NCBI GenBank assembly: GCA_963664305.2
Contig: CAXXLV010000002.1
Location: forward strand, 1,312,001-1,376,000
Length of the DNA: 64,000 nucleotides
Direction of reading: 5' to 3'
DNA from: an uncultured Aliarcobacter sp.
Lineage (GTDB): Bacteria > Campylobacterota > Campylobacteria > Campylobacterales > Arcobacteraceae
The position numbers and the translations under genes were made by a program. Below are positions 42,634-46,861 of this stretch, one piece after another. Numbering within the stretch: position 1 is the first letter of the stretch; the number at the start of each line of letters is the position of its first letter. The notes under the pieces were generated by a model. It ran no database searches and was not told the origin of the DNA. It saw only the letters and a list, made by a program, of their open reading frames with translations.

Positions 42634-44694
42634 TTACTCTTGAATTTGAGATTCTTCGTCGTCTTTTATTTGCATACCTGCTTCTTTTAGAAATGGACTA
42701 GCTACAAATGTAAGTTTTTTTATCTTGTCATACTTTGCATATGAAAGATATAAGATATCTTTTGCCCTTGTAACTGCAACGTAAAAAAGACGTCTTTCTT
42801 CTTCAATACTTCCACCTTTACTCATAAGTTTTCGATTTGGGAATCTTCCATCCATTAAATCTATTACATAAACTTCTTTGAACTCCAAACCTTTACTTGC
42901 ATGAATTGAAAGTAGATTTACTCCATCACCTTCACTCATCTCACTTCCACCTAAAATCATAGAGTTAATGAATTTTGAAAGGTCGTTAAAATTTCTTGAT
43001 AAATTCTTTAAAAGCATACCTTTTCTATTTATTTTCGCTAATGCTTTTGTTTTTTGCATTGGATTTATAGTTCCATCTTTTTGTGTTGCTCTTTTTGTAG
43101 ATAAAAAATCTTTTAACTTAGAATAAGCCATAGAAGATATGATATTTCCAACTAATGTTTCTGGATTTTTTGTTCTTCTTAAATGTTTCATCAACAAATA
43201 TATATCATAAAGATATTTTCCACCATCAACATTTAATTTTGGATGTTTTAGTATAGGATTTCCTAAAAATGCCTCTTCAAAATTACAATCTTTAAATTTT
43301 GAAACAGAACCTAACTCTATAAAATCATCAAAAAGCCCTAACTGCTGATTTTTCATTCTTCCTGTTTCATAAGGATTGTTCATGTCACTTCTTGGTTGAA
43401 ATAAACCTCTTAAAATATCTCCATCACCAAGTCTAATCAAAGCATCAAATACATCTTTTGCTATTGCTTTTCCAATACCTTTTCCATGTTCAACAACATG
43501 GATAAAAGCCATCATATCATTGTGAGAAAGTTGCATAACTAAAATATCAAGTATAAATTTCACTTCCACAGAATCAAAAAAGCTCATTCCACCTTTTCGT
43601 TTAGCAGGAATTGAGAACTCCCTCAAATTTGCTTCTATACCATCTGCACTTGAATTATTTCTATAAATAATTGCAATTTCACTGTGTGGAGTTTCACTTT
43701 TTGAAATTAATTGTGAGATATATTCATATTGAGAAAAAAGCTCATTAAAAGCCAATAATTTTGGTTTATGTTCATCTTGTGTTCTTACAACTTCAAGTTT
43801 TTTTTCATAAACCCTTTCATTAAATTCAATAACTTTTGTTGCCAAATCTAAAATTGGTTTTGTTGAACGATAATTTTTTCTAAGTGTAAATACTTTTGCA
43901 TTTTCATATCTTTTTGCAAAAGTTGAAATAATTCCAATATCTGAACCATTAAAAGCATAAATACTTTGGTCATAATCACCTACACAAAAAAGTGATTTTG
44001 GTCTAAATCCATCAAGTAATCTTCCTTGTAATGGATTTGTATCTTGATATTCATCTACTAAAATTTCTTTAAAATCAAACTCTTTCTCTTTTAAAGTTTC
44101 AAGCATAATTGTTAATAAATCATCAAAATTTGCATAACCATATTTTGTTTTTAATTCATGAAATTCAGCAACTACATCTTCATAAATTAAAGTATAAATT
44201 TCATGACTTGCATTTTTTGATTTTATCCATGAAGCAAAATCTTCTCCATCATTTGAATTTAGATATAAAGAATACATATCATATAAATATCCACCGTCAT
44301 ATGGATTAGCTTCATCATCTCTTTCCATAAAAACTCTTTTTTCATAAATAGATTTAAAAAGTGTTTTTAATTCATTTGGCTGTTTCAAAGTGATATTTAC
44401 ATTTAATTCTTTTAATAATTTGTATGAAACAGAATGAAAAGTTCCTGCCATAATCTGTTTTGCGATATCTTTTCCAAAAAATTTAGCAACCCTTGCTACC
44501 ATTTCAGCAGCTGCTTTATTTGTAAAAGTTAAAAGTAAAATTTGATTTGGTTTAACGCCATTATTTATTAAGTTTGCAATTCGTCCAACTATTGTAGAAG
44601 TTTTTCCTGTTCCAGCACTTGCAATAATAAGGTTAAAACCATAGGGACAAGTTGCCGCTTCTAGTTGTTCTTGATTTAGATTTGATAAAGGCAT
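42634..44694 (-). CDS. ATP-dependent DNA helicase, UvrD/Rep/PcrA family
   Basis: ASAGTGKT, LTFTNKAA, VDEYQDTN, VGDYDQSIY, NYRS, SIHASKGLEF, EERRLFYVAVTRAK; extended -10 TGATACTAT at 44747-44739. Confidence 0.95.
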   Translation of the reverse strand: MPLSNLNQEQLEAATCPYGFNLIIASAGTGKTSTIVGRIANLINNGVKPNQILLLTFTNKAAAEMVARVAKFFGKDIAKQIMAGTFHSVSYKLLKELNVNITLKQPNELKTLFKSIYEKRVFMERDDEANPYDGGYLYDMYSLYLNSNDGEDFASWIKSKNASHEIYTLIYEDVVAEFHELKTKYGYANFDDLLTIMLETLKEKEFDFKEILVDEYQDTNPLQGRLLDGFRPKSLFCVGDYDQSIYAFNGSDIGIISTFAKRYENAKVFTLRKNYRSTKPILDLATKVIEFNERVYEKKLEVVRTQDEHKPKLLAFNELFSQYEYISQLISKSETPHSEIAIIYRNNSSADGIEANLREFSIPAKRKGGMSFFDSVEVKFILDILVMQLSHNDMMAFIHVVEHGKGIGKAIAKDVFDALIRLGDGDILRGLFQPRSDMNNPYETGRMKNQQLGLFDDFIELGSVSKFKDCNFEEAFLGNPILKHPKLNVDGGKYLYDIYLLMKHLRRTKNPETLVGNIISSMAYSKLKDFLSTKRATQKDGTINPMQKTKALAKINRKGMLLKNLSRNFNDLSKFINSMILGGSEMSEGDGVNLLSIHASKGLEFKEVYVIDLMDGRFPNRKLMSKGGSIEEERRLFYVAVTRAKDILYLSYAKYDKIKKLTFVASPFLKEAGMQIKDDEESQIQE

Positions 44695-44773
44695 TGGATT
44701 TAGTTATTTGTATTTTTTAAAAGTGTAATCATTTCGAAATAGTATCATAAAAGATTTAAGAAAGATTGAAAAT

Positions 44774-44893
44774 AAAAAAGGATGCCCAGGGGAGGCATCC
44801 TTCTTTACACAAGGAAACATAAAAAATTATCTATTTAAGAAATCTTATCTTAAAAATATTCTTATAAATAAGCCGCTGCGTCAACTTATCTAT
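44774..44893 (-). ncRNA. Candidate trans-acting small RNA (~120 nt)
   Basis: TATAAT at 44905-44900; predicted +1 at 44893 coincides with a 5' hairpin; C/U-rich single-stranded UUUCCUU; GC-rich terminator AAGGATGCCT-CCCCT-GGGCATCCTT followed by a U6 tract; no RBS-led ORF. Confidence 0.65.
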
Positions 44894-44916
44894 AAAGAAA
44901 TTATAATCACTCATCA

Positions 44917-44953
44917 TTAACTAAAATCTAATCGAAAATTAACAAAGAGTTAA
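44917..44953 (-). promoter_or_regulatory. Four 11-bp-phased direct repeats (OmpR/PhoB-type site) upstream of the sRNA candidate
   Basis: TTAA at 44917, CTAA at 44928, TTAA at 44939, TTAA at 44950; minus strand reads GTTAAC-N5-GTTAAT-N5-ATTAGA-N5-GTTAAT. Confidence 0.5.
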
Positions 44954-44971
44954 CTTGACTATAATTTGCAA

Positions 44972-46861
44972 TTAAATCACATAATTGTTTTTAAAACTTA
45001 ACTCGATATTATCACCTATTGCTTTATTTCTTCCATTTTCTTTTGCTATATATAGGTAATTATCAGCTCTTTCTATAACTTGTTCTATTTTTTTATCTTC
45101 TTTTTGTATTTGAGTAAAACCAATACAACAAGTTTTACGATTTACATATTTAAACTTGAGATTTTCTACATTATCTTTTATTTTTAATGCTAAAGTTTTC
45201 ATCGCTTCAATATTTGTATTTGGAGCTATAATAATAAACTCTTCACCACCCCATCTACCAACCAAATCACTTTTTCTTGTACTATCTTTTAATATATTTG
45301 AAAATTCAACTAATAAATTATCTCCAACATTATGTCCAAATTTATCATTTACAGCTTTGAAAAAGTCTATATCTAAAATCATAATTGATACTTCTTCATT
45401 GTATCTACTTACATTATACATAGCTTTTTCTAACTCTTCATTTATTCTATTTCTATTTGCTAAATTTGTTAAACTATCTGTTTTAGCTAATTTCTCTATT
45501 AATTTTTTATCACTTATATTATAAGAAAAAGAAACATATTCATAAGAATCATTTTTTAGATTCTTTTTAGGTGTTATTTTCATATTTATCCAATATGTTT
45601 GACCATTCTTTTTCTTATTTTCTAATTCACCTTCCCAAACTTTTCCATCTTTTATTGTTTTCCATAAACTATTGTAAGTCTCTTTTTGTATATTATCACT
45701 TTTTAATTTACTGTGAGTAAATCCAATTAATTCATCTTTTTCATAACCTGTTAAGTCACAAAAAGCATCATTTACATAAATTATTATTCCTTTTTCATTT
45801 GTAATTGATATTGGAATATATCTATTTGTGATTTTAGTATTTTCTTTAATTTTTAATAAACTATCTTCTAATTTGCTTCTAATTCTACTTGGATAAACTG
45901 CTAAAATAAGTCCTAAAATAAGAACAAAAGGAATAATTATAGAAATTAACAATGTATTTGAATTGCCTAAAATTTCTGTTAAATATTTTTCATCTAGAAA
46001 AAATATCAACTTTAAATCTTGATTATTATTTGCAACTGTTTCCAAAGAATAACTATATAAAAAGTCTTTGTTATATTCATCATTTTTAGAAATTGCTTCA
46101 AAATCAAAGTTTCTAAATTCATTCTTAAAATTAAAATTTGTTTTTAAATCTTTTGACCATCTTTTTGAAGATTCAGGATGAAACAGATAATTCCCATCTT
46201 TATCTATCAAATAAACTTTTAAATGTCCAAACTCTTCTAAACTTTGAATAAATGATTTTAAATTTAGATTTAATACTAATAATCCTCTTTTTTCACCATT
46301 ATTACTAAAAACAGATTTTATGATACGAATTGTAGGATAATAAGGAATTTGTATTTTTCCAAATTCACTATTTAGATTTAATTCACTTATAAAAAAATCA
46401 TTAACAGTCATTTTTAAAGCATCTGCCATATATTTACTATTTTTTTTATTTTGTAATTGCTCAATTTTTAAAATTTCTGGTTTCTGATTTGTATAATATT
46501 TTTGGACTCTAATTAATTCATTTCCATCTAAATCAATAAATCTTAATTGAAGAATTTCATCTTTTGAAGAAGCATAATTATAAAAAAGTGTTTCTACAGA
46601 ATCTTTATACTTTGAATCTTCTATAAAATTTATAAATATTTTTTCCTCTAAAATATTATCAATATTTCTTTTACCCTCGTCTATTATTTTTGATAAATAT
46701 TTATTTTCAAATTTATAACTATTTTTTGTTGAGTTGTATTCATGTTCTTTTAGTTCAAATCTTAATATATTACTATTTACAACATAAATCACAGAAACAA
46801 TTAAAAATCCAAAAATAAGAAAAAGTAGAAAGAATTGAATATATAAACTTCTAAATGTCAC
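44972..46861 (-). CDS. Sensor diguanylate cyclase (Cache-like periplasmic domain-PAS-GGDEF)
   Basis: QLRFIDLDGNELIRV and PYYPTIR Cache-type motifs, PAS, DIDFFKAVND, RKSD I-site, GRWGGEEF. Confidence 0.92.
   Translation of the reverse strand: MTFRSLYIQFFLLFLIFGFLIVSVIYVVNSNILRFELKEHEYNSTKNSYKFENKYLSKIIDEGKRNIDNILEEKIFINFIEDSKYKDSVETLFYNYASSKDEILQLRFIDLDGNELIRVQKYYTNQKPEILKIEQLQNKKNSKYMADALKMTVNDFFISELNLNSEFGKIQIPYYPTIRIIKSVFSNNGEKRGLLVLNLNLKSFIQSLEEFGHLKVYLIDKDGNYLFHPESSKRWSKDLKTNFNFKNEFRNFDFEAISKNDEYNKDFLYSYSLETVANNNQDLKLIFFLDEKYLTEILGNSNTLLISIIIPFVLILGLILAVYPSRIRSKLEDSLLKIKENTKITNRYIPISITNEKGIIIYVNDAFCDLTGYEKDELIGFTHSKLKSDNIQKETYNSLWKTIKDGKVWEGELENKKKNGQTYWINMKITPKKNLKNDSYEYVSFSYNISDKKLIEKLAKTDSLTNLANRNRINEELEKAMYNVSRYNEEVSIMILDIDFFKAVNDKFGHNVGDNLLVEFSNILKDSTRKSDLVGRWGGEEFIIIAPNTNIEAMKTLALKIKDNVENLKFKYVNRKTCCIGFTQIQKEDKKIEQVIERADNYLYIAKENGRNKAIGDNIELSFKNNYVI

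Follow-up and report, generated by a model that had tools for sequence, protein, structure and literature searches.

The 277-nt spacer upstream of a UvrD/PcrA-like helicase gene in an uncultured Aliarcobacter sp. raised the question of whether it contains a small RNA gene of its own or only regulatory parts of the neighbouring genes. The window, i.e., the whole stretch of DNA that was analysed, was 64,000 nucleotides long, and the positions given below refer to it unless a contig is named. The spacer extended from 44695 to 44971, and the elements of the putative sRNA were located on the minus strand. Its upstream neighbour was a PAS-GGDEF cyclase gene encoding a Cache-type sensor domain (44972-46861, minus strand), and its downstream neighbour was the helicase gene, which was assigned by Pfam and NCBIfam (42634-44694, minus strand, with its ATG at 44694).

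The initial annotation had described a TATAAT hexamer, a 12-bp hairpin, an AU-rich hairpin, an unpaired stretch, a terminator and a separate -10 element of the helicase gene in this region, and we found all of these where it had placed them. On the minus strand, four phased boxes of the type (A/G)TTAA(C/T) (44954-44949, 44943-44938, 44932-44928 and 44921-44916) were followed by the -10 hexamer TATAAT of the sRNA promoter (44905-44900). Transcription would start approximately 7 nt past this sigma-70-type -10, at A 44893, and the predicted sRNA of ~120 nt (44893-44774) would end within a U-run (44779-44774). The RNA was divided into the following components: a 5' hairpin of 12 bp that included G-U pairs and had a 6-nt loop (44893-44864), a second, AU-rich hairpin (UUAAGA/UCUUAA; 44853-44835), a putative seed, UGUUUCCUUGUGU (44819-44807), which was single-stranded in both the MFE and the centroid folds, and an intrinsic terminator with a 10-bp GC-rich stem, the loop CCCCU and six U residues (44802-44774; stem 44802-44778). 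The extended -10 TGATACTAT (44747-44739, minus strand) belonged to the helicase gene and was not part of the sRNA. The 124-nt RNA folded at -36.2 kcal/mol, compared with -20.3 +/- 3.0 kcal/mol for 200 shuffled sequences (z -5.3), none of which reached a value as low. The terminator was not listed by a simple terminator scan, presumably because its stem runs into flanking A- and U-tracts.

We found that both hairpins and the terminator were conserved and covaried in relatives. RNAalifold, applied to a 30-species alignment that was made without the covariance model, predicted the same three helices as those originally proposed, and compensatory changes, likewise independent of the model, were present in 13 of the 26 pairs. 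Numerous G-U pairs were compatible with the minus strand alone. In an alignment of 52 copies, which was fitted to the covariance model and is hence biased towards the model structure, 25 of the 26 pairs showed changes on both sides, and 93.8% of the cells were paired versus 33-68% with slid partners; this level of pairing was reached by none of 500 shuffles. In particular, all 10 modelled pairs of the 5' hairpin varied on both sides among the 52 copies, and the G-U pairs of this hairpin fitted the minus strand only. The AU-rich hairpin contained no pair with a two-sided change and two pairs with a one-sided change within the genus, whereas two-sided changes were observed in five of its six pairs across genera. 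In the terminator, compensatory changes were present in all eight main stem pairs, with 99.5% of the cells paired in the 52 copies, and a U-run followed it in all of the copies shown.

The spacer was single-copy in its own genome, and it was present, again as a single copy, in all 36 genomes of the genus (Aliarcobacter/Arcobacter), with identities of 71-94%. In the MAFFT alignment of 30 species of the genus, TTTTTATGTTTCCTTGT was identical in every species, the helicase gene was always located downstream on the same strand and the upstream gene was variable. These 30 copies kept the -10 of the sRNA as TA.AAT, and the TGnTAnnAT of the helicase gene was also kept. Searches with the spacer in the other families of the order returned short, chance-level matches only. 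As judged from these comparisons, the conservation of the spacer is gene-like and far above that of an ordinary spacer.

To describe the distribution of the element, we used covariance models. Model hits scored 134 bits in the window and 33-122 bits in relatives, and the first model matched 73 of the 151 genomes of the family. By this model, the predicted sRNA family reached seven of the 22 sampled Arcobacteraceae genera, with 21/21, 6/6, 11/11, 7/7, 2/2, 3/3 and 19/21 genomes matched per genus (69/71 genomes), and 14 genera gave no match. One further genus, in which three of 21 genomes were weakly matched, was dropped; the two matches that were inspected consisted of the 3' end of a gene and its terminator, and the seed was absent. 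A convincing copy was lacking in 15 of the 22 genera under the same model. A second model, which was built from the 52 copies, matched none of 140 genomes from 25 other families of the order. A scan of all species genomes with a 17-mer gave, among the matches listed, many chance ones in unrelated phyla beside those in Arcobacteraceae. The predicted family is confined to part of the Arcobacteraceae. Two genera had two to four copies per genome, often in tandem at a spacing of 70-100 nt, and every tandem or extra copy had its own promoter and terminator. Where copies were separated by approximately 1 kb, the intervening DNA contained a gene for a MarR-family regulator and an 81-aa ORF in one genome, and a 240-aa ORF that had no Pfam match in a second genome of the same genus.

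The phased-repeat promoter described in the initial annotation was borne out by a family consensus. The four boxes were spaced exactly 11 bp apart from centre to centre, and the last one ended 10 nt before the -10. When the upstream DNA was aligned on the -10, 50 of the 52 copies gave the full stretch, and the -10 and the box array were conserved in these readable copies (50/52), including each member of the tandem pairs. Seven copies of the genus retained the two proximal boxes only. OmpR/PhoB-type activators use direct repeats that are spaced by one helical turn and take the place of the -35 element, and we infer that the box array would be the binding site of a response regulator of this type.

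To locate further promoters of this kind in the genome, we built a matrix from 30 sRNA promoters, for which the whole-genome mean was -56.5 (sd 14.1). The promoter of this sRNA (44916-44954, minus strand) scored 49.7, and it was followed by the promoter of htrA, which encodes an HtrA/DegP protease (26.1; array 47 nt upstream of the gene), by a site in the spacer between genes for a TonB-dependent receptor and an AhpC-type peroxiredoxin (20.4; contig 2, 686146-686186, plus strand) and by the promoter of a second sRNA (17.0; contig 2, ~281.1 kb). All remaining sites in the genome scored 13.0 or less. At the site on contig 2, 686146-686186, the receptor and peroxiredoxin genes both lay on the opposite strand, and no -10 was present behind the array. 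When an explicit pattern was allowed at most one mismatch, exactly three sites remained in the genome, namely htrA, this sRNA and the second sRNA at 281 kb. A strict genome search for the last box together with the -10 returned chance sites inside genes only. Across the family, 83 matches to the explicit pattern were present in 37 of 61 genomes, compared with two for the reversed control.

The sRNA promoter thus shared its box architecture with that of htrA, by both matrix and pattern. The htrA gene was the first of an operon on contig 1 of the same genome (513583-516587) that carried the box array in its promoter; its product passed the cut-off of the Do family, and it was followed by the gene of an OmpR-family regulator and then by that of a HAMP/HisKA kinase, which overlapped the end of the regulator gene. 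In 27 of 30 loci of the family, including genera without this sRNA, the array was located 43-62 nt before the htrA start codon. Three htrA loci of one genus had matrix scores below zero, yet phased TTAAC/TTAAT boxes were visible in them. Because the sRNA and htrA share the array, the htrA-linked OmpR-type system is most likely the regulator of the predicted sRNA, the shared promoter array being the one line of evidence for this link.

The second candidate sRNA was ~108 nt long and was located on contig 2 (~281131-280960, minus strand), behind a four-box promoter, and was flanked by genes for a lysine-decarboxylase-like protein and a HAD hydrolase. It comprised a 5' hairpin, a single-stranded CUCCUCC and a covarying terminator, and it was present in 37 of 40 genomes of the genus with its promoter boxes kept. 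We then selected by eye 20 pattern matches from 11 genera that belonged neither to htrA nor to this sRNA. A terminator-like hairpin with a U-run ended 88-122 nt past the -10 at 18 of these 20 sites, in contrast to none of 17 pattern-matching htrA promoters; one of the two sites without a terminator was masked by N. The sibling RNAs predicted in this way were ~90-120 nt long, numbered two to five per genome and included some from genera without the sRNA family of the window. By eye, nearly all 20 had a UCUCCU-type stretch that was CU-rich and single-stranded, and 14 of the 18 terminated siblings had such a stretch ahead of the terminator by a strict pattern. Many of the sibling 5' hairpins had GCGAA-type loops.

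As for the putative seed of the sRNA itself, TTTCCTTGT was kept in all 52 copies, and GTTTCCTTGTG was exact in 48 of them. Two seeds had originally been proposed. The first, UUUCCUU(GU), was upheld, being kept in 52 of 52 copies. The second, the terminator loop CUCCCCU, was not; a CU-rich 4-mer was present in the loop region of only 18 of the 52 copies, and the loop differed between genera. The first seed lies in a single-stranded stretch that is complementary to AAGGAAA-type ribosome-binding sites, and because of this complementarity occlusion of the translation start is most likely the action of the predicted sRNA.

Based on these results, we propose the following course of events. An OmpR/PhoB-type response regulator would bind the four TTAA(C/T) boxes, one helical turn apart, in place of a -35 element, and the resulting RNA would pair through its single-stranded stretch with the AAGGAAA-type ribosome-binding regions of target mRNAs and block their translation. 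This pairing would proceed without Hfq or ProQ, neither of which was found in this genome (99.96% complete; 8000 bases were outside the search), which agreed with the earlier claim that Hfq is lacking. Together with the second sRNA and the siblings, the sRNA would supply the post-transcriptional side of a response to envelope or protein-folding stress, and the regulon would consist of three parts, the htrA-regulator-kinase operon, this sRNA and one or more siblings. The shared array suggests that one stress sensor may control htrA, this sRNA and the siblings. We consider this explanation as a whole, i.e., a ~120-nt sRNA with an OmpR/PhoB-type promoter that belongs to an htrA-linked stress regulon and pairs with ribosome-binding sites, to be somewhat more probable than not. 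A more general form of it, in which the htrA-linked two-component system commands two to five anti-ribosome-binding-site sRNAs through the four-box promoter without Hfq or ProQ, is offered tentatively, as a reading with slightly less than an even chance of being correct.

The position of the element between two genes allows two other explanations. It might act in cis on the UvrD/PcrA-like helicase gene, as a leader or attenuator, whereby transcripts from the TATAAT would stop at the terminator unless a signal intervened. This is consistent with its position in the genus, where it was always directly upstream of the helicase gene on the same strand behind a varying upstream neighbour, with the same linkage in most loci of other genera, and with one contig from an RNA library that spanned the terminator into the helicase gene, although such a contig need not mean a single transcript. 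However, an extended -10 (TGnTAnnAT) was conserved between the terminator and the helicase gene, both in the genus and in 15 of the 16 helicase-linked loci of other genera. Moreover, the same promoter and terminator were found in tandem or beside unrelated genes. Whereas most copies were located between a gene for an MsrQ-like protein, a chemoreceptor or a CobW/UreG-like protein and the helicase gene, others lay beside SDR, FtsX/hydrolase, SelO or DUF1924 genes. The element was thus neither always upstream of the helicase gene nor free of an intervening promoter, as a leader or riboswitch would be. In addition, no alternative antiterminator pairing was noticed, and the same type of promoter drives further short terminated RNAs elsewhere, so far as these can be predicted. 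We regard a helicase leader as very improbable. Alternatively, the hairpin and U-run might merely terminate the upstream gene, in the window that of the PAS-GGDEF cyclase, and any small RNA might be a fragment of its 3'-UTR. Since no other terminator was present between the cyclase stop (44972) and 44802, read-through from upstream, i.e., the cyclase transcripts, probably ends at the sRNA terminator as well. The upstream gene varied (cyclase, MsrQ-like, chemoreceptor or CobW/UreG-like), whereas the element and its promoter were constant; the -10 and the box array were conserved, and the body of the RNA was more conserved than a terminator requires. An upstream terminator as the whole explanation is, in our estimation, even less probable than a helicase leader. 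The displaced and tandem copies, the varying upstream neighbours and the -10 of the helicase gene together argue that the element is neither a helicase leader nor a mere upstream terminator. Because tandem and displaced copies carry their own promoter and terminator, we conclude that the predicted sRNA gene is an independent gene and not a leader of the helicase gene. Both of the corresponding points of the initial annotation, a self-contained gene and the absence of a leader relationship, were therefore retained, with promoter and terminator each conserved.

The invariant stretch itself could also be read differently, as a mini-ORF (ATG TTT CCT TGT G..) that encodes a leader peptide. Most copies had an ATG or TTG in front of the same four codons, and a stop codon followed four to five codons on in several genera. 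Nevertheless, no Shine-Dalgarno sequence was located upstream, the stop was not conserved, the frame entered the terminator in the window and in others, and one copy was without a start codon. The seed was invariant even at positions that are synonymous in a reading frame, and as the third-codon positions were as invariant as the rest, selection on the RNA is indicated; we find a leader peptide scarcely credible. Another reading accepts a real sRNA under the same promoter and assigns it a role other than blocking ribosome-binding sites, i.e., titration of a protein, sponging of an RNA or activation of a target. The target predictions lend this some support, as no convincing or conserved target emerged and the seed pairs with almost any AAGGA-type ribosome-binding site in an AT-rich genome. 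When the seed was run by RNAduplex against 2748 predicted start regions, without a shuffled-seed control, the energies formed a continuous distribution, in which 319 of the 2748 regions of this AT-rich genome reached -12 kcal/mol or better. No common functional theme was recognised by Pfam among 20 hand-picked candidates, no gene stood out when the longest run of complementarity was sought, and the exact 11-nt complement of the seed showed no enrichment (41 genomes of the genus contained 21 matches beyond the sRNA gene, versus 31 for the control). The htrA, regulator, kinase, helicase and cyclase genes had average scores and were not predicted as targets. Signal-peptide-like N-termini were found in 30 of the top 100 regions versus 22% overall (p 0.03), a difference that is confounded by lysine codons at the start. 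On the other hand, the invariant stretch is single-stranded between hairpins, as in known pairing sRNAs, the CU-rich stretch in nearly all 20 siblings under the same promoter fits a common anti-ribosome-binding-site logic, and no repeated protein-binding motif such as GGA was seen. We therefore consider a role of this other kind unlikely and retain pairing with ribosome-binding sites as the preferred reading.

Public RNA data gave no more than a weak hint of a transcript. Part of the stretch was present in assembled contigs of metagenomic RNA libraries from wastewater and compost, which also covered the helicase gene and possibly derive from DNA. In a wastewater metatranscriptome (Logan), a 104-nt contig of the copy of a relative had a depth of 117.6 versus 24.6 for the flanking contig, although contigs cannot show the ends or levels of an RNA. 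This contig covered the sRNA of the relative from behind the 5' hairpin to the terminator (over 44806-44842 of the window), and the flanking contig corresponded to the start of the helicase gene. The depth of 117.6 may sum over several species, the invariant core being common to many.

We also compared the element with described RNAs. With permissive filters, the best Rfam 15 match in the window region 44400-45300 was Phe_leader, whose score was 20.3 bits compared with a threshold of 55 and which covered the terminator only, and no match reached the gathering threshold in 20 loci with copies of the family and sibling sRNAs. The earlier suggestion that the family is undescribed agreed with both searches. 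Full-text literature searches returned no publication on sRNAs of Arcobacter or Aliarcobacter. Spacers of Arcobacter sp. L were analysed systematically by Stav et al. 2019 (PMC6429828), and table S1d of that work gives 14 spacers, none of which adjoins a helicase gene; the present spacer is not among them. Taken together, the element very probably represents a genuine gene for a small regulatory RNA of Arcobacteraceae that has not been described before. The predicted sRNA family is new and in our view well-supported, and its promoter link to htrA and to sibling sRNAs is added here.

Several known systems are similar to the proposed one, but none is identical. OmrA and OmrB of enterobacteria are EnvZ-OmpR-dependent sRNAs that occur as adjacent duplicates, have intrinsic terminators and pair through a seed near the ribosome-binding sites of envelope mRNAs. 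The predicted sRNA resembles them in its small size, intrinsic termination, adjacent duplicates and conserved single-stranded seed, and in a class of regulator that is here deduced from the promoter. In contrast, its seed is internal whereas that of OmrA/OmrB is at the 5' end, no Hfq was found here, no sequence relation was seen, and OmrA-B was absent among the Rfam matches listed. The Qrr sRNAs of Vibrio depend on sigma-54/LuxO promoters, and the siblings are close paralogues. The present set is comparable in having two to five siblings per genome, one unusual promoter architecture and related seeds, whereas the sibling bodies differ and the seeds differ in part (UUUCCUUGUGU versus UCUCCU types). 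RepG of Helicobacter pylori and CJnc190 of Campylobacter jejuni are independent of Hfq, come from the same phylum and have a C/U-rich unpaired stretch, by which they pair with G-rich or ribosome-binding-site sequences. Their pairing stretch is located in a loop, whereas the one described here connects hairpins and the loop of the terminator varies, and no homology was apparent, with 0/140 matches in genomes of the order outside Arcobacteraceae and no Rfam match. MicA, RybB and MicL (sigma-E) and CpxQ (Cpx) are similar to the proposed sRNA as the non-coding arm of an envelope-stress response with a promoter type shared with degP/htrA. FoxI and FoxJ of Fusobacterium are presented as envelope-stress sRNAs in the accessible part of a further report (PMC11005410). 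The predicted sRNA differs from these sigma-E-, Cpx- and FoxI-type systems in that its promoter has direct repeats of the response-regulator type instead of an alternative-sigma promoter, and its induction by stress is presumed.

With regard to the regulator, the closest likeness was to the CprRS circuit. In Campylobacter jejuni, htrA and cprRS are adjacent in the order htrA-cprRS, and here too the genes for an OmpR-type regulator and a kinase lay behind htrA. According to the accessible text of a preprint (bioRxiv 10.64898/2026.10.05.755907), CprR acts in C. jejuni as an activator of htrA and of its own promoter, and a review, in the portion at hand, refers to CprRS as a cell-surface regulator. 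The two circuits are likened by gene order, orthology with the Arcobacteraceae regulator being an assumption; our regulator search in named genomes returned Arcobacteraceae only and did not reach Campylobacter. A CprRS-dependent sRNA was not found in full-text literature searches.

If the proposed circuit is correct, it would represent an envelope-stress sRNA regulon that operates without Hfq or ProQ, a type for which no example from this phylum was described in the literature searched. A regulator is known for very few sRNAs of Campylobacterota, and for Arcobacter and its relatives our literature searches returned no described case. The Arcobacteraceae include emerging food- and water-borne pathogens that are abundant in wastewater. 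For each genome, the promoter signature predicts one regulator, one protein operon and one set of sRNAs, so that both the input of the circuit (the stress signal) and its output (the targets) would be directly testable. The covariance models and the promoter pattern could also serve for the annotation of these RNAs throughout the family.

Finally, we noted two features of the neighbouring helicase gene. Its start was without an obvious Shine-Dalgarno sequence. Right behind its extended -10, a motif that read ATTTCGAAATGA in the window (44729-44741, minus strand) and TATTCGCAAATGA in relatives was kept across genera, and it may serve as an operator or mark the region in which the helicase mRNA begins.
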